Numbered from the stretch's first letter, positions 3,689-57,788 are shown. The stretch is 64,000 nucleotides of DNA from Flavobacteriales bacterium (GCA_016715895.1 JADJXH010000004.1:218876-282875); one strand, 5' to 3'. Program-made: numbers and translations. Notes: a model not told the origin generated them from the sequence alone.

Positions 3689-4180
3689 TCACCCAGCTGA
3701 ATAAACCAACTTGCCATTATCCTTAGCCCACGCTTCCGTGAAGCCAACGTGCGAAATGGCATTGGTGCTTCGATCGAGCTTGGCTTCGGTCTCCTTGCAA
3801 ACGATTTCTGGGGCCAGTTCATATATGACCTTCACTTCCAAAGGCCTCTTCTTGAAGAAGACGGCTAGGTAGATCTTGCGATTGCGTCGTATCCTCTCTA
3901 ATGATGCCTGCCTCTTGTCCTCCGGCTTATTGAACACCCGGTCCAACTGTCCGGATCCGCCTTCGAGACATGATAGATACTCGTACAGCAAGTCCTTGTC
4001 CTTGCGATCACGCGCGTCAGAGTCGTGCTTGGTCACGATTACCTCATGGCCTAGTATCTCGGCGATGATTATCTCCTTCACAAGCCCCGGCTGCAGGACG
4101 TTGAGGATGCCTATGCTGGTGGCCAATTCTTGCGCCTGCCTGACCAAAGCCACAATGCTCTTCAGTACCGTCGGACTCAT
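3689..4180 (-). CDS. Putative PvuII-like type II restriction endonuclease
   Basis: 163 aa, lower GC than the flanks, coupled to a DNA methyltransferase. By eye the sequence is colinear with PvuII as I recall it: [14 protein letters not shown] ~ QDLALKHGINDIFQ, DSDARD ~ GNDAVD, YEYLS ~ YELKS, VIYELAP ~ [16 protein letters not shown] ~ VMEHGTKIY. Confidence 0.6.
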
Positions 4181-4968
4181 ACGAACAATGTGTATTCAGC
4201 CTCTTTTGAAATAGAGGCCACCCTCTCATTCGCTATGCGCACATAGTCGCTGTTTTGCTCGAATCCGATGAAGCTCCGCTTCAACCGCTGACAAACAGCC
4301 CATGTAGTACCGACACCGCTGAAAGGGTCCAACACTAGATCGCCCTCGTTCGAGCTGGCACGTACCAGTCGGTCGATCAACTTCTCCGGCTTCTGAATCG
4401 TATTCAATAGGTCACGGCTAATGAGCTCTTTGCTCTTGTAGGTAAGCTGTTTGATATCCCCCCAGACATCGCCAGGGTTCTTTCCTGCTTCATTAAAGCG
4501 TGTCTTTCCATACGTGCCGTTCTGAACACTTGGCACACGTTCACATCGAAGTCGATGCTCAAGCTCCACCAACTGAGGGACCCGGATATCATCAAGGTTG
4601 AAGGTCTTCGCCTTGCCTTTACTGAAGTAGCAGATGAGATCGTAGTTGTTGGTGTAATTGGTTCGACCCTGCGCCAAGCGACTAGGTTGATACCAAACGA
4701 TGCGCGCGTTCAACTTCAAGTAAGGCCTATAGTCGATGAAGTCGATGCAATCCTCCTTGCCGAAGAGGTACATGGCACCACCAGGCTTGAGCACTCGACT
4801 GAACAAACGCAACAGGTTAAAATTATACCCTTGGATATCGCCGATCCGATCCCAGTCCTGATCGGTCACACCGTATGGCCCATCGCAAATGATGAGATCG
4901 ACGCTTTCGTCCGGCACATGTGCAATGAGCTTCAATGCATCTCCTTGGTGAATGGTCTCGTGTTCCAT
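4177..4968 (-). CDS. Site-specific DNA methyltransferase, N6A/N4C beta class
   Basis: IHQGDAL start, motif IV-like DGPY near the N-terminus, QKPEKLI, and motif I DPFSGVGTT near the C-terminus (beta order). Confidence 0.9.
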   Translation of the reverse strand: MEHETIHQGDALKLIAHVPDESVDLIICDGPYGVTDQDWDRIGDIQGYNFNLLRLFSRVLKPGGAMYLFGKEDCIDFIDYRPYLKLNARIVWYQPSRLAQGRTNYTNNYDLICYFSKGKAKTFNLDDIRVPQLVELEHRLRCERVPSVQNGTYGKTRFNEAGKNPGDVWGDIKQLTYKSKELISRDLLNTIQKPEKLIDRLVRASSNEGDLVLDPFSGVGTTWAVCQRLKRSFIGFEQNSDYVRIANERVASISKEAEYTLFV

Positions 4969-44740: not shown

Positions 44741-44761
44741 GATCGTATGGAGCCAGGCTCC

Positions 44762-44890
44762 TTACTTCTTCTTCGCGGCCTTCTTCGTGGCCTTCTTCGC
44801 GGCCTTCTTGGTGGCCTTCTTCGGAGCGGCCTTCTTGGTCGCCTTCTTCGCGGCCTTCTTCGTGGCCTTCTTAGCTGCCTTCTTTGCCAT
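44762..44890 (-). CDS. 42-aa histone H1-like Lys/Ala-rich protein
   Basis: Below the ORF-track cut-off. ATG at 44890 gives MAKKAAKKATKKAAKKATKKAAPKKATKKAAKKATKKAAKKK-TAA, followed by a hairpin terminator. Confidence 0.85.
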   Translation of the reverse strand: MAKKAAKKATKKAAKKATKKAAPKKATKKAAKKATKKAAKKK

Positions 44891-45142
44891 GACGGTTAAG
44901 GGTTTGAGACAAACGTATCACCTCGAACGCATCCACGCATCAAATGGTTGCAAGGATGTACCAACCAAATAGTGTTGATAACGATGAAGTGCGATCATCG
45001 ATCCTCGCATCGCATCGCGGTCATGCGCGCATCCGTTCGTTCGCATCGGTCGCATGCATCACGTGATGCACATGGTGCTCCTGCATCGCGTCGCCGCCAT
45101 CACGCATCGCTCCTGCCATCGATGCGTTCGGTGCCAAGCCGA

Positions 45143-46093: not shown

Positions 46094-47213
46094 TATTGAT
46101 CCGGCATCGATATAGCGGACGATCGGCACGATCTGTGGATCTTGCCGAGGCATGCGCGAGAACGACTCCAGGAAGCTGTCGATGCCCGAGCTCAATGAGC
46201 GTCGTAGGCAGGCGGTGCAATGCAGGCTCAAGGGCATGGGCCTGAAGGAAACGGCCGAACTCTGTGGCATGTCCCGCAACACGGTGAACGAAGCCTGGCA
46301 ACGGTACAAGGCCGGTGGCTGGAAGGCCATTCGTGTGTGGAAGACCGGTCGCCCGGTGGGCAAGGGACGCATCCTGACAAGTGAGCAGGAGAAGGAGACA
46401 CAACGGCTGATCCGTGACAGAACGCCCGATCAGTTGAAAATGCCTTATGCGTTGTGGAACCGGCAAGCGGTGCGCGAGCTGATCGAGCGGCGCTACGACC
46501 GCAAGCTGGCCATACGCAGTGTGGGGCTCTATCTGGAGCGCTGGGGATTTACGCCGCAGAAGCCACTGCGCAAGGCCTACGAGCAGCGACCGGAGGCGGT
46601 GCGCAAGTGGCTGCACGAGGATTATCCGGCCATCCGTGCACGTGCCAAGGCTGAAGGTGCCGTGATCCACTGGGGCGATGAGACCGGTCTGCGCAGTGAT
46701 GACGTTCGCGGGCGCAGCTACTCCCTGCGAGGCCACACTCCCGTGGTCAGGGTGAACCACAACCGCCACGGCTGTTCGGTGATCTCCACGGTGACCAATC
46801 GCGGGGAAATGCGCTGGATGGTCTTCAAGGGCGCACTGAACAGCAGCATCCTGATCGGCTTTCTGAGAAGACTGGTCAAGGATAGCGACAACAAGGTGTT
46901 CCTGATCTTGGACAACCTCAGGGTCCACCACAGCAAGCCGGTCAAGGAATGGCTCGAGGAGCATCTGGAGAGCATCGAGGTCTTCCACCTGCCGAGTTAT
47001 TCGCCCGAACTCAACCCGGTGGAAGTAGCGAACGCAGCGCTGAAGGATGCCGTCACCAAGCACGCTCCAGCACGCAAGAAGGGGCAGCTTGAACTCTTCA
47101 CATCACGCTTCCTGCGTTCCCTCCAGCGACACCCCAAGCGCATCATCGCACTGTTCCAGAAAGACACCGTTCGTTACGCAGCCTGAGTCCAGATCATGAA
47201 TGCCGGATCAATA
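46094..47213 (+). mobile_element. IS630-family insertion sequence
   Basis: Terminal inverted repeats ATTGATCCGGCAT (46095-46107) and ATGCCGGATCAAT (47200-47212), a TA dinucleotide at both ends, and a single transposase ORF. Confidence 0.93.
46152..47186 (+). CDS. IS630 DDE transposase
   Basis: N-terminal HTH, GFTPQKP, WGDETG, LILDNLRVH and LPSYSPELNPVE. Confidence 0.95.
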   Translation: MRENDSRKLSMPELNERRRQAVQCRLKGMGLKETAELCGMSRNTVNEAWQRYKAGGWKAIRVWKTGRPVGKGRILTSEQEKETQRLIRDRTPDQLKMPYALWNRQAVRELIERRYDRKLAIRSVGLYLERWGFTPQKPLRKAYEQRPEAVRKWLHEDYPAIRARAKAEGAVIHWGDETGLRSDDVRGRSYSLRGHTPVVRVNHNRHGCSVISTVTNRGEMRWMVFKGALNSSILIGFLRRLVKDSDNKVFLILDNLRVHHSKPVKEWLEEHLESIEVFHLPSYSPELNPVEVANAALKDAVTKHAPARKKGQLELFTSRFLRSLQRHPKRIIALFQKDTVRYAA

Positions 47214-47325
47214 AGCAATGCTGTGCAAGTCTCGCTCCACCGGCACTTCCATGCCCTCCTCATCCGAGGAGCAGGGTTCGAAGCTGGACGCGCCCTTTCT
47301 ATCTTCGTGCGTTACGTATCTCGCC

Positions 47326-50190
47326 ATGAACCAGCCCCAGGCCAAGACCGGCACCTCCGCCCCTCCCGCCGCCAAGACCCAGTCCGCCCCGGCCTCCTCC
47401 AACAAGGCAGCCGTGGAGGTCGACCTCGCCTACATCGATGGTGTGGCCTACCCCATCCACAAGGGCGAAACGATGCTCGCCTTCCTGAAGCGGCACAAGG
47501 GTCCCAACCCGGTGCCCACGCTCTGCGACGCGCCCAACCTGGAGCCCTTCGGCAGCTGCCGCGTGTGCAGCGTGGAGGTGGCCCTTCAGGAGGACGGCCC
47601 CAGCAAGGTGATGGCCAGCTGCCACATCCCCGTGGGCAAGGGCATGTACATCACGGTGAACAGCCCGCGCATGGAGCGGCTGCGCAAGAACATCGTGGAG
47701 CTGGTGCTCACCGACTACGACACCGAGCGGCTGAAGACCGAGGACCACGGGCGGAACGAACTGTACAATGTCGTCCAGCAGATCGGCTTCGACATCGACA
47801 GCGTGCGCTACCCCAAGGGGAAGAACCACCTCGACACGCCGATGGACACGAGCCATCCGTACATGGTGAGCGACCTCAGCGCGTGCATCAGCTGCTACCG
47901 GTGCGTGCGCGCGTGCGACGAGGTGCAGGGCGAGTTCGTGCTCACCATGGCCGGCCGCGGCTTCGACAACCACATCGTCAAGGGCACCAACGAAAGCTTC
48001 AAGGACAGCGATTGCGTGAGCTGCGGCGCCTGCGCACAGGCCTGCCCCACCAGTGCCATCACAGACGTGTTCCGCGCCAAGGAGACCAAGGCCGATGAAG
48101 TGGTGCGCACCGTGTGCACCTATTGCGGCGTGGGCTGCAACCTGGAGGTGAAGGTGAAGGACGGCAAGGTCGCCGGCATCACCGCACCGCTGGAGGCCGA
48201 GGCCAACCAGGGCCACACCTGCCTCAAGGGCCGCTACGCCTTCCGCTTCTACGACCACCCCGAGCGCTTGCGCACCCCGCTCATCCGCAAGAACGGCGAG
48301 CTCGTGCCCGCCACCTGGGACGAGGCCTACGACTTCATCGTGGACGGCTTCATCCGCATCCGCGAGCAACATGGTCCGGACGCGCTGGCCGGCGTGAGCA
48401 GCGCGCGCTGCCCCAACGAGGAGAACTACCTCATGCAGAAGTTCTTCCGCGCGCAGGTGGGCACCAACAACATCGACGCGTGCGCGCGCGTGTGCCACAG
48501 CCCCACGGCCCTGGGCATGCAGAAGACCTTCGGCACCGGCGCGGCCACCAACAGCATCGACGACCTGAAGGACACGCACACCATCATGGTGATCGGTGCG
48601 AACCCCACCGACGCGCACCCGGTGACCGGCGCCAAGATCAAGCAGCAGATCATGAAGGGGAAGACCCTGATCGTGATCGACCCGCGCCGCACCGAGCTGG
48701 CCCGCTACGCCCACTACCACCTGCAGCTGAAGCCCGGCACCAACGTGGCCCTGCTGAACATGATGATGCACTTCATCGTCAAGGAGGGCTGGGTGAAGCA
48801 GGAGTTCATCGACCAGCGCACCGAGGGCTGGGCCGATTTCAAGAAGGAGATCCTCGCCGTGGACATCGACGCCATGGAGCGCGAGACCGGTGTGGACCGG
48901 AACCTGGTGCGTGAAGCCGCGAAAGCCTACGCCAGCTCGCCCGCCGCCATGAGCTTCCACGGCCTGGGCGTCACCGAGCACTACCAGGGCACCTTCACCG
49001 TGATGCAGATCGCCGACCTGGCGATGATGACCGGCAACATCGGTCGCCGCGGCGTGGGCGTGAACCCGCTGCGTGGCCAGAACAACGTGCAGGGCGCGGC
49101 CGACATGGGCTGCCAACCCCACCAGGGGGCAGGCTACTTCGCGGTGGACGAGCCTGCGAACATCCGGATGTACGAGCAGTTCTACGGCGTGGAGCTGCCC
49201 CACCACGCGGGCAAGAAGATCCCGCAGATGTACGACGCCATGCTCGCGGGCACGCTGAAGGCCTTCTGGGTGGCGGGCGAGGACATGGCGCAGACGGACC
49301 CCAACACCCTGCACGTGCGCAAGGCCCTGGGCCAGCTCGAGCTCTTCGTGGTGCAGGAGCTCTTCATGACCGAGACCGCCAAGCTCGCCCACGTGGTGCT
49401 GCCCGCCAGCAGCTTCCTGGAGAAGAGCGGCACCTTCACCAACGGCGAGCGCCGCATCCAGCGCGTGAACGCCGTGGTGGAGCCCATCGAAGGCACCAAG
49501 AGCGACGGGCAGATCACCTGCGACATCATGGAGCGCTACGCCGCGAAGACCGGCAGGCGCAGCGGCAACGCCAGCAAGGAGTACCACCCGAGATGGGTAC
49601 TGGAGGAGATCAGCCGCATCGTGCCCTTCTTCGCCGGGGTGAAGTGGGACGAGCTGGGCGAGAACGGCAAGCAATGGCCCGTGAAGCCCGACGGCAGCGA
49701 CACCAAGATCCTGCACGCCGACACCTTCAAGCGCGGCCTCGGCAAGTTCATCTTCAACCAATGGGAGAAGAGCCCCGAGGTGCGCGAGAACGAGAAGGAC
49801 TACCCCTACATCATCACCACCAACCGCGAGCTGGAGCACTACAACTGCGGCGCCATGACGCGGCGCACCGGCAACGGCGAGATCCTCACCGAGGACGTGC
49901 TGCTGATCAACCCCGCCGACGCGGAGAAGAACGGCATCGCCGAGGGCGACATGGTGTGTGTGGAGAGCCCGCGTGGCAAGGTGGACATCAAGGCCCGCAT
50001 CACCGACGAGGTGAAACCCGGCATCCTCAGCAGCACCTTCCACTTCCCGGAGATCATGCTCAACATCATCACCAGCAGCGTGAGCGATTCACTGGCGATG
50101 TGCCCGGAGTACAAGGTGGTGACGTGCAGGATACGCAAGGCGAAGAAGGCGCACCTCCGTCAGGCTGGAGAAGTGGTACTGAAAGCCTGA
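47326..50190 (+). CDS. fdhF: Formate dehydrogenase alpha subunit (Mo/W-bisPGD, Cys-type)
   Basis: N-terminal Fe-S motifs (CRVC, CISCYRCVRAC, CVSCGACAQAC, CTYCGVGC), ARVCH active-site Cys-His, LRGQNNVQG; start at ATG 47326 after a TATCTTCG box at 47300-47307. Confidence 0.95.
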   Translation: MNQPQAKTGTSAPPAAKTQSAPASSNKAAVEVDLAYIDGVAYPIHKGETMLAFLKRHKGPNPVPTLCDAPNLEPFGSCRVCSVEVALQEDGPSKVMASCHIPVGKGMYITVNSPRMERLRKNIVELVLTDYDTERLKTEDHGRNELYNVVQQIGFDIDSVRYPKGKNHLDTPMDTSHPYMVSDLSACISCYRCVRACDEVQGEFVLTMAGRGFDNHIVKGTNESFKDSDCVSCGACAQACPTSAITDVFRAKETKADEVVRTVCTYCGVGCNLEVKVKDGKVAGITAPLEAEANQGHTCLKGRYAFRFYDHPERLRTPLIRKNGELVPATWDEAYDFIVDGFIRIREQHGPDALAGVSSARCPNEENYLMQKFFRAQVGTNNIDACARVCHSPTALGMQKTFGTGAATNSIDDLKDTHTIMVIGANPTDAHPVTGAKIKQQIMKGKTLIVIDPRRTELARYAHYHLQLKPGTNVALLNMMMHFIVKEGWVKQEFIDQRTEGWADFKKEILAVDIDAMERETGVDRNLVREAAKAYASSPAAMSFHGLGVTEHYQGTFTVMQIADLAMMTGNIGRRGVGVNPLRGQNNVQGAADMGCQPHQGAGYFAVDEPANIRMYEQFYGVELPHHAGKKIPQMYDAMLAGTLKAFWVAGEDMAQTDPNTLHVRKALGQLELFVVQELFMTETAKLAHVVLPASSFLEKSGTFTNGERRIQRVNAVVEPIEGTKSDGQITCDIMERYAAKTGRRSGNASKEYHPRWVLEEISRIVPFFAGVKWDELGENGKQWPVKPDGSDTKILHADTFKRGLGKFIFNQWEKSPEVRENEKDYPYIITTNRELEHYNCGAMTRRTGNGEILTEDVLLINPADAEKNGIAEGDMVCVESPRGKVDIKARITDEVKPGILSSTFHFPEIMLNIITSSVSDSLAMCPEYKVVTCRIRKAKKAHLRQAGEVVLKA

Positions 50191-50193
50191 TCG

Positions 50194-50640
50194 ATGCGCA
50201 TCTACATCGACACCTCGGTCTTCGGTGGTTGTTTCGACGAGGAGTTCGAGGAATGGTCCTTGAAACTCTTCGAGCTGGTCGCAACCGGCAAATACACGGT
50301 GGTGATCTCGGATGTGACCGAGGATGAGTTACGGGATGCACCCGCACATGTCCGCGAAGTATTGAAGGACCTTTCGCAGAAGCAGTTGGAGGTGGTCAAA
50401 CTCACGGAGGAGTCAAGAGCATTGGCCCATGCCTATGTCAAGGAGCGCATCGTCACCGCCAGGTGGAAGGCGGATACGGAGCACATCGCTGTCGCCACCA
50501 TCGCCCAGGTTGACCTTCTGGTGAGCTGGAATTTCAAGCACATCGTGAATTACGACCGCATCCGGCTCTACAACGCTGTAAATTTGAAGCACGGCTACAA
50601 ATTGCTCGAGATCCGTAGCCCAAGAGACCTGACCACATGA
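50194..50640 (+). CDS. PIN-domain toxin-like protein
   Basis: IYIDTSVFGG, DTEHIAVAT and LVSWNFKHIVN. Confidence 0.88.
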   Translation: MRIYIDTSVFGGCFDEEFEEWSLKLFELVATGKYTVVISDVTEDELRDAPAHVREVLKDLSQKQLEVVKLTEESRALAHAYVKERIVTARWKADTEHIAVATIAQVDLLVSWNFKHIVNYDRIRLYNAVNLKHGYKLLEIRSPRDLTT

Positions 50641-50822
50641 ACACCGAAGCCAGAAAGAAGAAGCGCTTTGACGCCGTGGCCATGGTGCGCGAGATACGTG
50701 AGGCCCACTATCGCCGAGACACCGACCCCAACTTCGATCCAGCGGAGTTGAAGCGCATCAAGGCAAAGTGGACCAAGTTGCTTGAGGAGGACCTGAAGGC
50801 GCGGGGTAAGAAAGCGGCTTAA
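50637..50822 (+). CDS. Putative antitoxin downstream of the PIN gene
   Basis: 61 aa, KKKRFDAVAMVREIRE; ATGA overlap with the PIN stop. Confidence 0.7.
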   Translation: MNTEARKKKRFDAVAMVREIREAHYRRDTDPNFDPAELKRIKAKWTKLLEEDLKARGKKAA

Positions 50823-50824
50823 CA

Positions 50825-51075
50825 ACCGACGAGGTGAAGCCTGCCTACCGGCAGGCAGGCCCGGCATCCTCAGCAGCACCTTCCACTTCCCCGTGATCAT
50901 GCTCAACATCATCACCAGCAGCGTGAGCGACAGCCTGGCGATCCCGTTAGGGCGGGACAGGTCGTGCCCGGAGTACAAGGTGGTGATCCCGCTGGGGCGG
51001 GACAGGCTGTGCAGGATCCGGAAGGCGCGGAAGGCGCACTTGAGGAAGGCCGGCGAAGTCCAGGTGAAGGCATGA
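50825..51075 (+). pseudogene. fdhF: fdhF 3'-end relic copy 1, with three palindromic insertions
   Basis: Aligns to about 50002-50190 (TDEVKPGILSSTFHFP...KA*), with insertions at 50840-50859, about 50941-50961 and 50986-51006. Confidence 0.95.
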
Positions 51076-51401
51076 GCTTGAGAGCACTGCTGACAGCGGT
51101 TCTAGCGCTATGCCTGATCGGGGCAACGCTGCCATCGCACCCGCTTCATCTGTCCGGTACAGTTCGGTTCAAGAGTGAGCGAGTGGACTTACGCGTGGAA
51201 GGGCTCAGCCTCTTTGTGAAAGCAGGTGGTCGGATCCTTGCGAAGAGCGATGTTGATAAGGATGGTCGATACGCCATCAACTTTACTCCAGGTGACCAAC
51301 CTACTGTCGACTTCTACTATGCGGGCCTTGGTCACGATACCACCTTCATCAGGTCCTTCACTCGTTTCGAGAGCGATGTATTGATCTGGAATATTGACTA
51401 A
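51072..51401 (+). CDS. Small secreted hypothetical protein
   Basis: MSLRALLTAVLALCLIG signal peptide, beta-rich 109 aa; ATG overlaps the relic's TGA. Confidence 0.7.
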   Translation: MSLRALLTAVLALCLIGATLPSHPLHLSGTVRFKSERVDLRVEGLSLFVKAGGRILAKSDVDKDGRYAINFTPGDQPTVDFYYAGLGHDTTFIRSFTRFESDVLIWNID

Positions 51402-51449
51402 TGAGCACGCATTGGAACCTTAGTGCGCCTGCCTGCCGAAGGCAGGGCC

Positions 51450-51703
51450 AGGTGGACATCAAGGCCCGCATCACCGACGAGGTGAAGCCCGACATCCTCA
51501 GCAGCACCTTCCACTTCCCGGAGATCATGCTCAACATCATCACATCAAGTGTGAGCGACTCACTGGCGAGCCAGCTTTGGCGGGACAGGTCGTGCCCGGA
51601 GTACAAGGTGGTGATCCCGCTTGGGCGGGACAGGCTGTGCCGGATCCGGAAGGCGAAGAAGGCGCATTTGAGGAAGGCGGGAGAGGTGGTGCTTAAGGCG
51701 TAG
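51450..51703 (+). pseudogene. fdhF: fdhF 3'-end relic copy 2, with two in-frame palindromic insertions
   Basis: VDIKARITDEVKPDILSSTFHFPEIMLNIITSSVSDSLA-[SQLWRDRS]-CPEYKVV-[IPLGRDRL]-CRIRKAKKAHLRKAGEVVLKA*. Confidence 0.95.
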
Positions 51704-51841
51704 GTTCTTGGGGCGTTCCGGCTCGAAGACTCGCCGTCGGGCCATCCGCTCGTAGTCCTCGCCGCCCTCGTTCCTCAGTCGGCTGTGGGCTTTCCGCTTC
51801 AATGCGTCGCGCGGCTTAGTTTTGACTTGAGCAATTGACCG

Positions 51842-52996
51842 ATGGCAAAGAAGCAGTACAAGGTTCCGGTTTCCGGGGTGGTGGCGCAGTACGCCAGGAC
51901 GAGCCTTGGCCTATCGGTCGTGGATGCCTGCAAGATGCTGGAGATTGAGGCTGAGGAATTGGAGGCCATTGAATCCGGTGTGGAGCAGCCAGGGATTTTC
52001 TTGCTCAAGTCGATGGCTAGGGTCTACAAGCGGTCTTTGACTTTCCTGCTCCTCACCGAGGTGCCTTACGAGAAGCCGTTACCACGCGACCATAGGACAG
52101 CCGGCTCTGTCAAGCTTGACCATTTCCATTCGAAGACCATCCTTACAGTTCGGAAAGCCCGTACGCTCGCCATCTCTCAAATAGACCTGCTCAGGAACTT
52201 GAACTTGCCGGTGCCGGCGTTCAAGCACCGCTCGACGTTGCAGGATGATCCCAAGGCATTAGGACAAAAGCTGAGGCAACAGCTTGAGTTGTTCCACCTC
52301 CGCGAGGAGGGTATTACAGATGCGCAGGCCTTGGAACATACCATCGAAGCGGTCTCAGCTCTTGGCGTGCTGGTCTATCAACTGAGTCTGACCCAGGACG
52401 GCCTACGGGGCTTCTCCGTTTTGGACGAGGAGGTACCGATCATCGTTCTGAAACGGCGAGGGGAAATGCCGACCGCGAGATTGTTCACGCTTTTCCATGA
52501 ACTCGGTCACGTCATCCTTGGAGAAAGCGGCATGTGCGACCTGCACGCAGCAGATGGGGAGGCAATAGAACATTGGTGCAACAGCTTTGCCGCAGAGGTC
52601 CTGTTGCCGAGAGAGGAGCTGCGGCAACACACGGTGGTCGTTCAGCACCTCGCTGCAAATGCGGGTAAAGAGTGGGCAAGGGTGGAGTTGGCCAATATCG
52701 CCAAGGGATACCATGACGGCTTGGAGGTGGTATTGCGGGCATTGCTTTCTGAGAAGCTCACCACGCCAGAATTCTATGAGGAGCACCACCTGAAATGGAA
52801 AGAGAAAGCCTTTGGACGGGCAAAGAAGGGCCAGCCACGCGATACGATCAAAGGGAAAGTGCAGGAACGCGGACGTTCGTTCGTGCGCTTGATCTTCAAT
52901 GCCTTTGACCGTGAACGGATCGGCGCCATTCAAGCCTCGCAACTCCTTGATGTGCCGATGGACCGCTTCTCCCAAGCCCGTCAACTGGTAGTATGA
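51842..52996 (+). CDS. XRE-family HTH plus ImmA/IrrE metallopeptidase fusion
   Basis: N-terminal HTH (ARTSLGLS...LEAIESG) and FTLFHELGHVIL (HExxH) followed by EHWCNSFAAEVLLP. Confidence 0.92.
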   Translation: MAKKQYKVPVSGVVAQYARTSLGLSVVDACKMLEIEAEELEAIESGVEQPGIFLLKSMARVYKRSLTFLLLTEVPYEKPLPRDHRTAGSVKLDHFHSKTILTVRKARTLAISQIDLLRNLNLPVPAFKHRSTLQDDPKALGQKLRQQLELFHLREEGITDAQALEHTIEAVSALGVLVYQLSLTQDGLRGFSVLDEEVPIIVLKRRGEMPTARLFTLFHELGHVILGESGMCDLHAADGEAIEHWCNSFAAEVLLPREELRQHTVVVQHLAANAGKEWARVELANIAKGYHDGLEVVLRALLSEKLTTPEFYEEHHLKWKEKAFGRAKKGQPRDTIKGKVQERGRSFVRLIFNAFDRERIGAIQASQLLDVPMDRFSQARQLVV

Positions 52997-53513
52997 TGAA
53001 CTTGTTCGATGAGGATGAGGCCATCTATGCGTTCGACAGTGATGCGTTGGTGACACTTGAGCGATACTACAGCGACCTATCCGTCTTCGATGCGCTTTGG
53101 CAGGACCTGGCATGGCTTTCCCTCGCAGGCCGCTTCAAAGTCATCGACTTCGTGTACGACGAGGTAGTGGATAGCTACAAGGGCGACCGGGGGTTCCTGA
53201 AGTCCTGGTTGAAGAAGCAGCGCAAATACTGCTTCTGGGAAACCGATGAGAAGGCGATGATCTTATCGCAGCGGGTCATCAACGAGAATGTTAGGTCTGG
53301 GTTTCTGAAGCCTGGCAAACTGATTGGAGAGCGGGATGAGGCTGATCCATTCCTGATCGGGACGCTGCGGTAGAAGGTTTCATCATTGTCACCAAGGAGA
53401 AGACAACGGTCTCCAACAAGTTGCCGCAAGTGGCAGCGAAGTATGGTGCTCGCACCATCGGCATCGCGGACTTCTTGAAGGATCGCGGATTCAAGCTACA
53501 GCGCGGGTCTTAA
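52993..53513 (+). pseudogene. DUF4411-like PIN protein, frameshifted
   Basis: YAFDSDAL...EADPFLIG; the continuation AAVEGFIIVTKE...KLPQVAAKYG...DFLKDRG lies in another frame, shifted near 53360-53365. Confidence 0.8.
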
Positions 53514-53715: not shown

Positions 53716-54702
53716 TCACATCAAGAAGCCGTTCTCCTGCTCCACGGGGCCGGGGATGTCGGTATCGCCGATCATTTCGCGCAGGTCGATCTCAATTCCG
53801 CGTGCGATCGAGGTGATGGGCACATCGTTGTAGGTGCCTTCGAAGGGGTTCTCGGAATAGTCACCGATCATCTCCATCAGGAAGAAGATCCAGATGATGA
53901 GCGCGCTCAGGAAGGGTGATACCCAGAAGAGCCAACCCGCTGAACGGCCGATGACATCGAGCATGCCCAGCGGCACGAACACGGCGAAGACAAGCGTCAG
54001 CCACAGCGCTGTGCTGGCGTACTGGCGCGGGAAGGGGAAGTTCTTGATCCGCTCCGCACGTCCCTGTTCCGCATACAGCTCAGCGACATGTCCGTGGAAG
54101 GCCATGTGCCGGAAGTCATCGAAGTAGCCGGCATCCCGCAGCTCCTGCAGACGGATGCTCTGGTTGCGCAGCAATTGGGTGGCCAGGTTGCTTTGCTGGT
54201 ACACGCCGGACAGCTCCTGCTCGGGCAGGTATTTGGACATCTCCGCCTTGCATACCGGTCCGGGTTGCTCGCTCATCCGGGGCAGGTTCGCACTGTGCTC
54301 CAGCTCACGCGGATGCTCCCAAGCACGGGGCATCCGGAGCTGGTGGCGAAGGGCGGTGAGCCAGGCGATATGGCGATGGACGAGCTCGCGGCGGATGGCC
54401 TGGTCGTCCGGGCCCTTCACGAACGAGCAGACCGCAGCACCGAACGCGCGGCTGCTGTTCACGATGCCGCCCCAGATCTTGCGCGCCTCCCACGTGCGGT
54501 CGTACGAACTGTTGTTCTTGAAGCCGAGGTAGAAGGCCACCGCGATGCCGATGACGCTGATGGGCTGCCAGGGGATGCTGAGATCCGTGTGGAGCAGGTG
54601 AACAAGGATGTTCACCACGGTTGCGTAGGCCAGCCCGATGACAAAAGACCTCCTGGATCAGAAAAAGGTCATGAAGAAGCCGTAGTTGCGCTTGATGTAC
54701 AT
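53716..54702 (-). pseudogene. Bestrophin-like (UPF0187/YneE) channel gene with an in-frame TGA at codon 15
   Basis: FKNNSSYDRTWEARKIWGGIVNSSR, ERIKNFPFPRQY and ENPFEG; the upstream in-frame ATG at 54702 reads MYIKRNYGFFMTFF*SRRSF. Confidence 0.8.
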
Positions 54703-54842
54703 GGGTGTGCTTGGGAGCGTGAAGATGGGGAATGCGGCAGGTCGTCGCTTGCATCCGCGATCGACCGGTCCGGAGATGCACGGGACAAGGGCCTCCACGG
54801 TTGAGCTCATGCCTGGCATCGCACCACGGTGGCCATCACCCA

Positions 54843-54968
54843 CTCGCCCGCGTTTGCAACGCGGGCGATGATCCCGGCGCGCTTGCAGCGCGCACCGCTT
54901 CCGGCTCACATGGGTCATGGTCGTTGCAAACGACCTGCTTCCACGCCCGCGTTACAAACGCGGTCGAG
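54843..54968. repeat. 126-bp four-hairpin element (REPIN/MITE-like), copy A
   Basis: 25-bp terminal inverted repeats ctcgcccgcgtttgcaacgcgggcg and two internal hairpins with TTGCA loops. Confidence 0.88.
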
Positions 54969-55051
54969 CTCTGGCCAACGCGGGTCAGCGAAGGCTACCC
55001 CATCGGGTGGAAAGCCCGCGCGGGCACGCCTGCCCCGGGCCTGACCCGGGG

Positions 55052-55150
55052 GTGGACATCAAGGCCCGCATCACCGATGAGGTGAAGCCGGGCATCCTCT
55101 CTGGCACCCTCCACTTCCCGGAGATCGTGTTCAACATCATCACCATCAGC
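55052..55150 (+). pseudogene. fdhF: fdhF 3'-region relic copy 3 (first half)
   Basis: VDIKARITDEVKPGILSGTLHFPEIVFNIIT, preceded by the palindrome cctgccccgggcctgacccgggg. Confidence 0.92.
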
Positions 55151-56540
55151 GCGCATGCACCACCTCGAACCGTGCCCGTGCCAGGCTGCGGCCGTTGGCA
55201 TCACACAGGGTGGCCACATAGAGCCCCCCGGCCAGCGGGGAGGTGTCCACAACGACGCCGTCCGCTGATGCACCCGCCTGCTCCACCAACCGGCCAGCAG
55301 CATCCGTGATCTCGATCCACGCCGCCTGGGCCGCGCCGTCAAGGCGGATGTACATCGCATCATCCGCAGGATTGGGGCCCAGCGTCATGACGTTCATGTC
55401 GGTCGCTTCTTCCACAGCCGCGACCAGGCAGTTGAGGATCACGCCCACGTAGGCACCGCTGCTGGCGGCGATCACGATGTCCGGGAGCGCATCGGCATTG
55501 AAACGGCCCACGGCGAAGTCGATGGGATTCACGGCGGCGATGGAATGCACGGGAGGGCCGAACTGGCCCGCACCGTAGCCCGGGAACACCCGCACCGAAT
55601 TGTTGGCGTAGTCCGCCACCACCAGGTCGCCGAAACCGTCGAGGTCCATGTCCACTGACCGCACCAGCGCGGGACTGATGCCGCCGTACATCGTCACGGG
55701 CGCCGCGAAGCCACCGGTACCATCGCCCATGCGGAAGGAGAGGGAGTCCGGGGACGGATACGAGTTGGACACCACCACGTCCATGTCGCCGTTCGCATCC
55801 ACATCGATCGCCGAGGCGAAGATGCTGGTGTGCGGATGCGTGACGTGGGTCCGCGTTCCGAAGGTGCCGGGCCTTGTGCCCCACAGGATGCTCCAGAAGT
55901 GGACGACCTCGCCCAAGCCGGCCAGGTGGGTGTAGAGCACATCGAGGTGGCCATCCTCATTGAAGTCGGCGAGGTCCAGGGAAGTGGCCGGGACATCGGT
56001 GGGATGATCCGCGTGCGGCTGGAAGGTGCCATCGCCGTTGCCGATCAGCACGGCCAGGCCACCGCCACCCGCGCCATGGGGAACGAGCAGGTCGATGGCC
56101 CCGTCGTTGTCGAGGTCGCGCGCCATCAGGGTCCACGTTTCCCCGGAAGGGATGGCGTACGGGACAGGGGCATCAAAAGCTCCGCCGCCCAGGTTGAGCA
56201 GCACCTGCACATGGTCCACATGCGCGGTCACCAGGTCCGCGCGCGTGTCGCCGTTCAGATCGGCCGCGATGATGTCCACCGGGTACATCCCCACCGGCAG
56301 CGTGACGGCGGGCTGGAAGCTGCCGTCCCCATTACCGAAGAAGATCGACAGGTCGCCAGTGAGGTGGTTGCTCACGGCCATGTCCAGCAGTGTGTCATCG
56401 TTCAGGTGGCCGGCGGAGATGCCCCAGAGGTCAAGGCCGCCCGAGGCGACGAAGCCGGTATGGTCCAGGCAGATGTTCTGGCTGCGGAGCCCGCCGCCCA
56501 ACGTGAGCAGGACCAACGCGCATGGAACGTCGAAGCGCAT
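55146..56540 (-). CDS. FG-GAP/VCBS repeat protein with T9SS sorting domain
   Basis: Repeated DLNGDxxxDL motifs and a C-terminal LGPNPA...DAAGRLV...GGLYV domain. Confidence 0.9.
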   Translation of the reverse strand: MRFDVPCALVLLTLGGGLRSQNICLDHTGFVASGGLDLWGISAGHLNDDTLLDMAVSNHLTGDLSIFFGNGDGSFQPAVTLPVGMYPVDIIAADLNGDTRADLVTAHVDHVQVLLNLGGGAFDAPVPYAIPSGETWTLMARDLDNDGAIDLLVPHGAGGGGLAVLIGNGDGTFQPHADHPTDVPATSLDLADFNEDGHLDVLYTHLAGLGEVVHFWSILWGTRPGTFGTRTHVTHPHTSIFASAIDVDANGDMDVVVSNSYPSPDSLSFRMGDGTGGFAAPVTMYGGISPALVRSVDMDLDGFGDLVVADYANNSVRVFPGYGAGQFGPPVHSIAAVNPIDFAVGRFNADALPDIVIAASSGAYVGVILNCLVAAVEEATDMNVMTLGPNPADDAMYIRLDGAAQAAWIEITDAAGRLVEQAGASADGVVVDTSPLAGGLYVATLCDANGRSLARARFEVVHAR

Positions 56541-56968: not shown

Positions 56969-57023
56969 AGCAGGTCAAGACGACTGTTGTGCGGCGCGGG
57001 TTGTCCGACTCGTGCCTCTCCCG

Positions 57024-57149
57024 CTCGCCCGCGTTTGCAACGCGGGCGATGATCCCGGCGCGCTTGCAGCGCGCACTGCTTCAGGCGTACATGGTTCATG
57101 GTCGTTGCAAACGACCTTCTTCCACGCCCGCGTTGCAAACGCGGGCGAG
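57024..57149. repeat. 126-bp four-hairpin element, copy B
   Basis: Same length and architecture as 54843-54968; its terminal arms are exact reverse complements. Confidence 0.88.
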
Positions 57150-57157
57150 CTCTGACC

Positions 57158-57199
57158 GTGCCGGACCCGGAAGGCGAAGAAGGCGCATTTGCGGAAGGC
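57158..57199 (+). pseudogene. fdhF: fdhF 3'-end relic copy 4 (short second half)
   Basis: gtgccggacccggaaggcgaagaaggcgcatttgcggaaggc differs at only 2 nt from the same stretch of copy 2. Confidence 0.85.
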
Positions 57200-57228
57200 A
57201 TTCGCTGCCGCGGGTCTGTAGCTCACGC

Positions 57229-57606
57229 CTATACCGCCACCACCCGCCCCTGCATCCACTCACCGATCTCATCCGCAGACGAACGACCTTCAGCGACGCG
57301 GATGGTCAGCTCGTAGAGTTCATCCTGCGTTGCTTCGATCCGGAAGCCCTCCTTGCGCAAGAGCAGAAGTGCGAGACCGAGGCCTGTGCGCTTGTTACCG
57401 TCCAACCACGGATGCCGGATGATCACGCTCTCCATCAGCGCGGCAGCCTTGGCGACCGGTGAAGGATAGAGATCCTCACCACCGAATGTTTGGTATGGCC
57501 GTGCCAAGGCGGCTTCCAAAGCACCCTGATCTCGCAAACCCTGCGCTCCTCCGAATGCCTCGATGGAACGCGCGTGAAACTTTTCGGCGAGGTCCAACGA
57601 GATCAT
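57229..57606 (-). CDS. Fic/Doc (death-on-curing) family toxin
   Basis: GLRDQGALEAALARP and HPWLDGNKRTG. Confidence 0.93.
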   Translation of the reverse strand: MISLDLAEKFHARSIEAFGGAQGLRDQGALEAALARPYQTFGGEDLYPSPVAKAAALMESVIIRHPWLDGNKRTGLGLALLLLRKEGFRIEATQDELYELTIRVAEGRSSADEIGEWMQGRVVAV

Positions 57607-57788
57607 TTCGCGAGCCGGGCCAACACCTCCCGGTTCTCCTCGATGATCTTGTCGATCAACTGATCGTCGCTCTCCTTGGTAGAGCCGACCTTCAGCTCAT
57701 CGAGCAGATCGATGAGCTTGATCAACGCCTTGTCTGAAAGGCCTTCGATGGCTTTCGCGGCCTTCTCGCGGAGTTCCTTGGTGCTCAT
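57603..57788 (-). CDS. Putative antitoxin for Doc
   Basis: 61 aa ending KIIEENREVLARLAK, 4-nt overlap with doc; TAGTTTTG box at about 57826-57833. Confidence 0.8.
   Translation of the reverse strand: MSTKELREKAAKAIEGLSDKALIKLIDLLDELKVGSTKESDDQLIDKIIEENREVLARLAK

Follow-up and report, generated by a model that had tools for sequence, protein, structure and literature searches.

The 3' end of fdhA, a formate dehydrogenase alpha subunit gene carried by 64,000 nucleotides (nt) of Flavobacteriales DNA (GCA_016715895.1 JADJXH010000004.1:218876-282875; the window), is probably a recombination hotspot that gathers small promoterless cassettes while the gene itself is kept intact. A cassette would have three parts: a replacement copy of the last ~20-60 fdhA codons with its own stop (the tail), cargo genes that start 0-3 nt past that stop or overlap it, and an arm that is a 5'-truncated copy of the fdhA 3' region. 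On entry, a crossover in the highly conserved part of the gene would join the host body to the cassette tail, and the former tail, shifted downstream behind the cassette arm, would become a relic. The array lies on the plus strand and its proximal part comprises the following features, given like all positions below in window coordinates (aa, amino acids; ORF, open reading frame).

47218..50190, plus strand: intact fdhA, formate dehydrogenase alpha subunit, 990 aa, stop TGA at 50188-50190.
50100..50122, plus strand: 23-nt segment GTGCCCGGAGTACAAGGTGGTGA, found by repeat search in 3 copies that are 100% identical (intact gene, 50964-50986 and 51592-51614).
50124..50190, plus strand: current functional tail (CRIRKAKKAHLRQAGEVVLKA, then stop); divergence from all relatives begins at ~50133.
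50194..50640, plus strand: cargo 1a, PIN-domain protein, 148 aa, ATG 3 nt past the fdhA stop.
50637..50822, plus strand: cargo 1b, 61-aa basic ORF overlapping the PIN stop (ATGA).
50827..51075, plus strand: relic 1, 5'-truncated fdhA 3' end (arm and tail CRIRKARKAHLRKAGEVQVKA) in an open frame, stop TGA at 51073-51075.
51072..51401, plus strand: cargo 2, protein of 109 aa that begins with a hydrophobic, signal-like N-terminal segment; the ATG overlaps the relic 1 stop (ATGA).
51451..51703, plus strand: relic 2, fdhA 3' end (tail CRIRKAKKAHLRKAGEVVLKA), stop TAG at 51701-51703.
51704..51830, plus strand: native downstream flank of fdhA, conserved after the fdhA stop in relatives.

The endings found in the relics differ from that of the intact gene almost only at synonymous sites. 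Over the last 12 sense codons of the gene and of relic 2 the preliminary description had counted 9 synonymous changes, 1 replacement (Q/K) and 2 identical codons, a count that we reproduce (intact/relic 2: cac/cat, ctc/ttg, cgt/agg, cag/aag, gct/gcg, gga/gga, gaa/gag, gtg/gtg, gta/gtg, ctg/ctt, aaa/aag, gcc/gcg), ctc/ttg and cgt/agg being multi-base synonymous changes. The stops also differ as reported there: TGA in the intact gene, TGA in relic 1 and TAG in relic 2. Nei-Gojobori counts over the tail, taken as the 21 codons after position 50123, give for the intact gene and relic 2 sd=12.0/S=15.3 (synonymous differences per synonymous site, pS 0.78) and nd=3.0/N=47.7 (the non-synonymous equivalent, pN 0.063), and for the intact gene and relic 1 a pS of 0.69 and a pN of 0.157. 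The binomial probability that at least 12 of 15 changes are synonymous by chance is 9e-6. All tails encode the same 21-residue peptide with 1-4 replacements. Upstream of 50123 the arms have a pS of 0.16, against 0.67-0.78 for the tails, and the identity gradient noted earlier is thus real; the near-identity ascribed to the upstream part of the relic stands once two in-frame 21-nt insertions per relic are removed, and is lost when they are counted. Full-length comparisons with the intact gene give a pN/pS of 0.14 for relic 2 and of 0.23 for relic 1, far from a dN/dS of ~1. Such values and the near-only synonymous divergence agree with the earlier proposal that the tails were functional alleles under purifying selection. 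Each tail would have been translated as the true FdhA end while it stood in the first copy, whence differences at silent sites only. The relics are now outside protein-level selection because of the hairpin insertions that they carry. A similar pattern is found for the intact-versus-relic tails pooled from 8 other genomes (pS 0.68, pN 0.115, ratio 0.17).

Homologous loci from other genomes are designated here by L-numbers. The main comparison set comprises the 80 nearest fdhA loci; L081-L183 are the genome-wide loci of the hairpin H21, described below, in species-representative genomes, and L184, L266, L268 and L269 are relic-bearing loci beyond the nearest 80. The data are assemblies of metagenome-assembled genomes (MAGs), with homopolymer errors in L025. 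The host belongs to a high-GC Flavobacteriales lineage (GC ~65%) represented by metagenome bins only, and its closest relatives are wastewater and bioreactor MAGs, with 95% aa identity over the last 299 fdhA residues. The literature on this locus or on the H21 sequence yielded nothing relevant.

Within the genome the three tails form no cluster, each being nearest to tails of other genomes: relic 2 to the native allele of L005 (89%), relic 1 to L029 (85%) and the intact tail, at only 77-79%, to an L002 relic and to L268. Relic arms are host-clade-specific, 93-97% identical to the intact gene of their own genome and share host-specific substitutions with it. This identity and the shared substitutions are what would be expected from a local tandem duplication of the gene 3' end followed by neutral decay, with unrelated insertions between the copies. 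We concur with the preliminary description in setting this explanation aside as highly improbable: 80% of the tail differences are synonymous (P ~9e-6), with the low pN/pS of the full relics, the tails lack within-genome clustering, the arrangement of cargo and tail recurs in other species, tail divergence follows the cargo instead of the gene body, and body and tail phylogenies are discordant (see below for these last points). A mutagenic recoding of the tails, by a diversity-generating retroelement or otherwise, was also considered and rejected, since the changes show no adenine specificity and the same alleles are met in other genomes.

The native ending can be identified from the flank, the tail pS and the base composition. 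The ~100 nt that follow relic 2 (51704-51803) are found at most ~20 nt past the intact-gene stop in L008, L009, L014, L017, L019, L024 and L063, and the conserved flank comes after the last relic in L001, L012 and L016; relic 2, which adjoins this flank, thus keeps the ancestral junction. Compared with 13 native-type tails, the median tail pS is 0.44 for relic 2 (minimum 0.17), 0.64 for relic 1 and 0.78 for the current tail (minimum 0.59). The relic 2 value is that of the native baseline (0.44 vs 0.42), native-versus-native comparisons used as control giving a median pS of ~0.42 for the tail and 0.25 for the fdhA body. The relic tails have a GC at third codon positions (GC3) of 0.86-0.90 and the current tail one of 0.67, and first-position tails of other arrays have a GC3 as low as 0.38-0.48. 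The current tail states ATACGCAAGG and GCCTGA are also present in the L006 tail, likewise ahead of a PIN cassette. Flank, native-allele pS and GC3 together indicate that the current tail is of foreign type and that relic 2 is the displaced native end. On this sequence evidence relic 2 is the resident original fdhA ending and the current ending is a foreign allele of lower GC3. The earlier idea that the tails were imported or displaced with their cargo therefore holds for displacement and fails for the import of every tail, relic 2 being the resident native ending. An intact 990-aa ORF that ends in a foreign-type tail, with the displaced native tail downstream, is the configuration of gene-end restoration by integrative elements. 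The native gene would first have ended with the relic 2 tail and the native flank; cargo 2 would then most likely have come with the relic 1 tail, and the PIN cassette after it with the present tail, the alternative to this order of arrival being an insertion of cargo 2 in relic 1 after the PIN cassette.

The preliminary description had proposed to look for tails linked to the same cargo elsewhere, and such linkage is found: the PIN cassette is located 3 nt past the fdhA stop in L006, in L184 and in strains of four other metagenomes, with 76% nt identity to the window in L006 and 68% aa identity in L184. Between the window and L006 or L184, respectively, pS is 0.19 and 0.27 for the gene body, 0.72 and 0.72 for the tail, 0.57 and 0.59 for the PIN gene, and 0.71 and 0.74 for its partner. 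By these counts tail divergence matches that of the cargo and exceeds that of the gene body 3-4-fold. In contigs of four other metagenomes, a relative with ~95% identity has fdhA, the PIN cassette (97%) and the relic 1 arm with its hairpins up to 51050; past 51050 it has a different native-type tail, without cargo 2. The same PIN cassette and arm ahead of different tails thus form a single unit found in two backgrounds. Most PIN homologues of 80 other genomes lie away from fdhA, L184 alone having one next to it, which indicates that the toxin family as such is not bound to this location. Cargo 1a matches Pfam PIN_12 (26.9 bits, 7e-06; cut-off 32) and PIN_3 (25.4 bits, 3e-05; cut-off 27), both below threshold. 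Cargo 1b is a putative antitoxin-like partner of the PIN protein. It is conserved beside PIN in L006 and L184 with a pN/pS of 0.26 and gives no Pfam or NCBIfam match, and its position downstream of the PIN gene is an unusual order for a type II toxin-antitoxin system. Cargo 2 has no family match in Pfam or NCBIfam.

Beyond the native flank the variable region continues with further cargo and with a third, split relic:

51842..52996, plus strand: protein with a helix-turn-helix (HTH) and an M78 (ImmA/IrrE-like) domain; Pfam Peptidase_M78 5e-16 and a weak NCBIfam match to the spr1629-family antitoxin.
52993..53373, plus strand: DUF4411 protein (Pfam DUF4411 5e-10).
53716..54618, minus strand: bestrophin-like channel protein gene (Pfam Bestrophin_2 8e-49), inside the variable region.
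54836..54976, plus strand: copy 1 (141 nt) of a MITE-like element (MITE, miniature inverted-repeat transposable element), from the repeat search; fold -50.4 kcal/mol, z=-6.75.
55051..55153, plus strand: relic 3a, arm-only fdhA fragment, 89% identical to the intact gene.
55146..56540, minus strand: FG-GAP repeat protein with a type IX secretion system (T9SS) sorting domain (Pfam FG-GAP_3 9e-35, Por_Secre_tail), between the halves of relic 3.
57017-57157: copy 2 of the MITE-like element, 92% identical to copy 1.
57158..57222, plus strand: relic 3b, tail-only fragment (CRTRKAKKAHLRKA, then divergent), stop TAG.
57229..57606, minus strand: Doc/Fic toxin gene (Pfam Fic 4e-15; NCBIfam DOC_P1 53 bits, cut-off 38.65).
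57603..57788, minus strand: 61-aa partner upstream of Doc/Fic, the two forming a Doc/Phd-type pair.

The HTH-M78 and DUF4411 genes are, from their domains, a predicted toxin-antitoxin or defence-type pair. Relic 3 is split by ~2 kb that hold the FG-GAP T9SS gene and MITE, and the 5' end of relic 3b is exactly the hairpin site B, abutting MITE copy 2. Its tail homology ends right after GGAAGGC, the same point where relic 1 departs from related strains. The 141-nt MITE-like element is also found in L004 (97%), L005 and L006, and a homologue of the FG-GAP protein lies in L031 ~9 kb downstream of fdhA. GC drops from ~0.65 to 0.55-0.58 over 50-54 kb of the window.

Relics are present downstream of fdhA in at least 19 of the 80 nearest loci, with more in L184, L266, L268 and L269. 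The cargo of the 19 arrays was surveyed over 96 ORFs located up to 7 kb downstream of fdhA in the 19 array-bearing genomes, 5 weak families of one subset not being displayed. It includes defence functions (two restriction-modification systems, parts of cyclic-oligonucleotide-based anti-phage signalling systems [DncV-like, SMODS, Cap15] and AbiEii-like ATPases) together with Fic/Doc, PIN, M78/DUF4411, SocA, LexA/S24 and T9SS-secreted proteins. The architecture is not restricted to fdhA. At the 3' end of a thiolase-like gene in L087 (5230-6300) and L142 (reverse strand, ~4100-4530) the intact end has a recoded tail, in which 11 of 32 codons are changed synonymously and 1 by replacement (counted by eye), followed by cargo in L087 or by only ~65 nt in L142, and then by a relic with H21 inserted between ACGAT and GTGC at a Met-Cys junction.

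The gene ends of relatives are mosaic. A recoded 3' segment reading ACG TCG AGT GTA AGT GAC AGC (T S S V S D S), in which the serine codon family is switched twice, is found in L012 and L015, which belong to one body clade, and in L016, L019 and L020, which belong to another, while their clade-mates are AGC-type; its exact 29-mer occurs in seven species. L016 and L014 are 95% identical in the body and 75% in the 3' segment, whose phylogeny is discordant with that of the body. The imported tracts vary in length and position. That of L015 measures ~35 nt and that of L020 is an internal patch of ~130 nt with a native tip; in L012 the tract runs from ~-30 nt up to the stop, in L016 it exceeds 190 nt, and in the window it is limited to the final ~55 nt. 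These patches fit the earlier proposal of a crossover in the conserved part of the gene with a hitch-hiking tip. Relic 5' boundaries, numbered q as the position within the last 600 nt of fdhA, range from q308 to q511, are unequal even within single arrays and do not coincide with a fixed att core, although they cluster at q417-445.

Direct repeats that flank the insert, variable crossover points and mosaic copies, all present in these arrays, are the hallmarks of homologous insertion-duplication. We privilege the hypothesis that the cassettes would move by general homologous recombination between fdhA-like repeats and not by a dedicated integrase. A DNA composed of the conserved fdhA part with a tail, the cargo and the arm is homologous to the gene on both sides and could be inserted by double crossover or, as a circle, by single crossover; the route would be a Campbell-type integration or a double crossover of a fragment with both repeats. 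A rare illegitimate joining would have created the junctions a single time. The cargo would keep its link to the tail tip and to the 5' edge of the arm, and the middle would be exchanged with each host, which predicts the identity gradient, the host-specific arms and the cargo-like divergence of the tip. Campbell-type insertion-duplication leaves an insert flanked by direct repeats of the homologous segment, and hotspots can turn over through recombination in flanking core genes. The fdhA arrays resemble this outcome in their intact first copy, 5'-truncated second copy and variable crossover position.

A search for mobility genes gave negative results. No integrase, recombinase or transposase has a Pfam match among the 96 surveyed ORFs (5 weak families of one subset not displayed) or between 47.2 and 64 kb of the window, the sole nearby transposase being that of an IS630-family element immediately upstream of fdhA, outside the array; Phage_integrase, Recombinase and Resolvase have no match between 42 and 64 kb. 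No viral contig has the conserved 22-mer. Variable tracts, variable boundaries and the lack of a detected integrase favour homologous recombination over an integrase acting on a fixed core.

Site-specific accretion is a possible though rather unlikely alternative. Integrative and conjugative elements (ICEs), integrative and mobilizable elements (IMEs) or phage-like elements with a tyrosine or serine integrase would target the fdhA 3' end through an attP carrying the gene end, and the present units would be decayed, integrase-less cis-mobilizable elements (CIMEs) and microCIMEs in tandem, with att boundaries blurred by gene conversion. Tandem CIMEs (1.2-13 kb) and gene-less microCIMEs (130-220 bp) are documented for the streptococcal ICESt3 family at the 3' ends of fda, rpsI and rpmG (PMC7563491). 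Accretion would account for the clustering of relic boundaries at q417-445 and for the invariance of the 23-nt segment. It is difficult to reconcile with the negative integrase and viral searches above, with relic boundaries that vary within single arrays, with imported tracts that start variably and can be internal (that of L016 starts ~24 nt upstream of the relic boundary) and with the 100-290 nt of gene-identical sequence that relics hold upstream of any plausible core.

Several observations weigh against recombination between fdhA-like repeats as the source of the arrays, some of them by pointing to accretion. Cargo-less units of ~50-140 nt, similar in size to microCIMEs, are found in L010, L012 and L268 and, at another gene, in L142. 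A T9SS-protein cassette common to L003, L025 and L050 has an identical arm boundary in these three hosts, as expected of accretion by an integrase. The conserved 23-nt segment between two direct H21 copies might be interpreted as an att core flanked by arm sites. An integrase might also be encoded at another genomic location and work in trans. Among the assembled contigs of the public runs searched, which matched at most 28% of the locus words, there is no excision product, circle, recombination event or joint at the repeats. The tail statistics rest on only ~15 synonymous sites, in a region where divergence exceeds that of the body even between native alleles. In L006 the tail ahead of the PIN cassette differs little from the native one of L008, its sister, so that linkage of tail and cargo is not absolute. 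Finally, the position of relic 3 beyond the native flank is unexplained by a simple order of events.

The preliminary description had missed two in-frame 21-nt insertions in each relic relative to the intact gene. They read IPLGRDR(S/L), lie between GAY and GTGC and flank the 23-nt segment identical in three copies. The hairpins of relics 1 and 2 are:

50840..50859, plus strand: H0, 20-nt hairpin (CCTGCC-TACC-GGCAGG) in the relic 1 arm, absent from the intact gene.
50943..50963, plus strand: H21 at site A of relic 1, in frame between GAT and GTGC; the same element and site are found in L020, L050 and L269.
50988..51008, plus strand: H21 at site B of relic 1, in frame between GAY and GTGC; the site is also filled in an L002 relic.
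51428..51446, plus strand: H0-type hairpin at the 5' boundary of relic 2, fold z=-2.26.
51571..51591, plus strand: H21-type element at site A of relic 2, a variant with the shifted stem GCCA-GCTT-TGGC.
51616..51636, plus strand: H21 at site B of relic 2, from alignment to the intact gene.

H21 is CCCGCTNGGGCGGGACAGG plus 2 nt. It was found at 103 loci in species-representative genomes, mostly of Bacteroidota and often at several loci per MAG, typically in the context (C/G)AT-H21-GTGC, and filled and empty paralogous sites define it as a clean insertion of ~21 nt. Across 1.37 Mb of fdhA loci H21 occurs only in relics. Hairpins related to H0 are found at 51428-51446 and in L014, L017, L029 and L266, and the small palindromes that sit in relics besides H21 are H16, H0 and two more, of 24 nt in L003 and of 20 nt in L050. 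The relics of L001, L006, L016 and L184 are hairpin-free. A perfect 16-nt palindrome (TCCGCCGTACGGCGGA) at (G)CGATG is present in relics at two gene positions (L006:5349, L012:10932 and 11619, L020:12139, L030:11560). An Rfam scan of 49.5-58.5 kb (E<=1) returned no family, indicating that hairpins and relics are not a known RNA. Repetitive extragenic palindromic (REP) elements are short GC-rich palindromes. H21 is REP-like in being a short palindrome with many copies per genome and insertion polymorphism, and H21, H16 and H0 share with REP elements their nature of GC-rich hairpins of 16-21 nt, multi-copy, with filled and empty sites. They differ from them by lying in frame within former coding sequence between GAY and GTGC and by the absence of a GTAG/CGTC tag recognisable by eye. 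The relic hairpins are most likely secondary REP-like insertions that persist only in unselected copies; they may also contribute to cassette stability or to the mechanism itself.

It is improbable that H21, H16 and H0 are the recognition structures of a single-strand transposition or REP/RAYT-like (RAYT, REP-associated tyrosine transposase) system that builds cassettes between GAY and GTGC near gene ends. The restriction of H21 to relics among fdhA loci, its presence at a Met-Cys or Thr-Cys junction in relics of two unrelated genes (fdhA and the thiolase-like gene), the start of relic 3b at site B beside another structured element and an H21-like hairpin at the L142 relic boundary would speak for such a system, but H21 is multi-copy across Bacteroidota in many non-relic contexts, its filled and empty pairs reveal a self-contained insertion of ~21 nt, several relics are hairpin-free and the left junction of every cassette lacks H21. 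Two related candidates were considered. H21 as a relic-specific att structure is weakened by its multi-copy spread across Bacteroidota, the filled and empty sites and the clean relics; a CRISPR-like repeat-spacer reading of H21-core-H21 was rejected, in view of spacings of 10-123 nt elsewhere and of the absence of cas genes.

Cargo genes begin right beside a tail stop or overlap it (TGAnnnATG, ATGA, TAATG), and the TGA/TAG-nnn-ATG junction ahead of PIN is kept in three species. A metatranscriptome contig of a related strain (run X31; window 50049-50154 and 51493-51538) joins an fdhA tail to 619 nt of another cargo and to a relic arm, which suggests read-through transcription of such arrays; the evidence is suggestive because metatranscriptome libraries can contain DNA. 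Coupled junctions and this contig would also fit a functional switch, in which a recombination of the intact gene with a relic arm removes proximal cassettes and puts distal cargo under fdhA read-through, or in which relic frames encode Molydop_binding-fragment proteins. Rhs orphan arrays operate in the former way (PMC3967940), and the frames of relics 1 and 2 are open for 83 and 100 codons, the latter from an ATG at 51401 that overlaps the cargo 2 stop. We nevertheless regard the switch as unlikely: hairpins would add 7 residues twice within the last strands of the domain, the relic 1 frame is shifted upstream of H0, and deletion is one-way. Relic ORFs such as 51401..51703 should not be annotated as genes.

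A fuller proposal built on homologous recombination is tentative. The arrays could represent an integrase-free, "homology-armed" cassette system of high-GC Flavobacteriales, in which a synonymously recoded tail translationally coupled to cargo and a decoy arm, the second stretch of homology, enter fdhA and thiolase ends by host recombination, leave these genes active and form defence-rich arrays, the recoded tip and the in-frame hairpins of the decoy blocking the reverse, deleting crossover and thereby retaining the cassettes.

The arrays have points in common with several known systems. They share with CIME accretion (PMC7563491) a target at the 3' end of a conserved protein gene that stays intact, direct repeats of the gene end between stacked units, adaptive or defence cargo and units that may be without a recombinase or any gene. 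CIME units, however, are delimited through a tyrosine integrase and att repeats that are short, identical and located at a single fixed position, whereas the fdhA arrays have no detected integrase, repeats of 100-290 nt with variable ends, variable crossovers, mosaic tracts and cargo translationally coupled to the replacement tail. At rhs and cdiA, displaced orphan C-terminal modules lie downstream and are reshuffled by homologous recombination (PMC3967940). The fdhA arrays correspond to this arrangement of a full-length gene followed by 5'-truncated fragments that have a conserved stretch, an alternative tip and a linked gene, lack initiation signals and are reshuffled by recombination with the main gene. 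Rhs/CdiA tips are different toxins under diversifying selection with cognate immunity genes, in contrast to fdhA tips that encode the same peptide (pN/pS ~0.1-0.2) with linked genes unrelated to the enzyme; the arrays do not qualify as polymorphic toxins. With integrons they share small, mostly promoterless cassettes expressed from upstream, hairpin DNA at cassette 3' ends and, probably, a newest cassette nearest to the entry point. No IntI, attI or attC architecture was found, the "site" being homology to a housekeeping gene end, and the fdhA-relic hairpins are simple stem-loops of 16-21 nt absent from many cassettes, unlike the imperfect inverted repeats of attC. To our knowledge, the natural, recurrent and lineage-wide use of a gene end with recoded replacement tails is not known as a described cassette system.

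FdhA itself has the Pfam domains Molybdopterin (3.5e-78), Molydop_binding, Molybdop_Fe4S4 and Fer2_4, with a NuoG-like 2Fe-2S/4Fe-4S N-terminus, and scores 784.8 bits against NCBIfam TIGR01591 (Fdh-alpha), above the equivalog cut-off of 666.25, over residues 298-972. This match, the length of 990 aa and the NuoG-like N-terminus assign the gene to the NAD-type Fdh-alpha and not to the short E. coli FdhF. The TIGR01591 profile stops at residue 972, which leaves the last 18 aa (RKAKKAHLRQAGEVVLKA) as a lineage-specific extension. A hypervariable loop is located at FdhA residues ~780-800 (window ~49560), after TGRRSGN, with a variation of 0-37 residues (L009, L017, L020, L022, L023, L029, L054, L063); in the L017 intact gene the extra 21 nt of this loop hold a CCTGCC...GGCAGG hairpin. 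Length differences of +21 to +111 nt in the fdhA of relatives were considered as tail variation and proved to be located in the loop after residue ~780. The IS630-family DDE_3 transposase gene (46152..47186) lies between a NuoF-like gene and fdhA, within the expected fdh operon. Further upstream, a 42-aa Lys/Ala-rich ORF (MAKKAAKKATKK...) at 44762-44890 (minus strand) is made of 12-nt tandem repeats (44753-44902) and resembles histone H1-like or other small basic proteins. In L014 (2395-2481, 5449-5539) and L019 (3632-3717, 6652-6706) the post-fdhA flank is also found inverted ~3 kb upstream, so that inverted repeats bracket fdhA; the window has no upstream copy of the flank.

For annotation, the final 18 residues of FdhA are to be seen as a selected, exchangeable extension, and H21 can sit in frame within former coding DNA. 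The interest of the locus resides chiefly in integrase-less, multi-gene, lineage-wide arrays and in an in-frame REP-like element. If recombination between gene-end copies is the true origin of the arrays, small defence and toxin-antitoxin modules would colonise essential or conserved genes without encoding a recombinase, with the sole need of a spare copy of the gene end. This would account for part of the integrase-less hotspots seen in comparative genomics, and would provide a signature for searching metagenomes: a gene end, cargo, and then a second copy of this end, 5'-truncated and divergent at silent sites.

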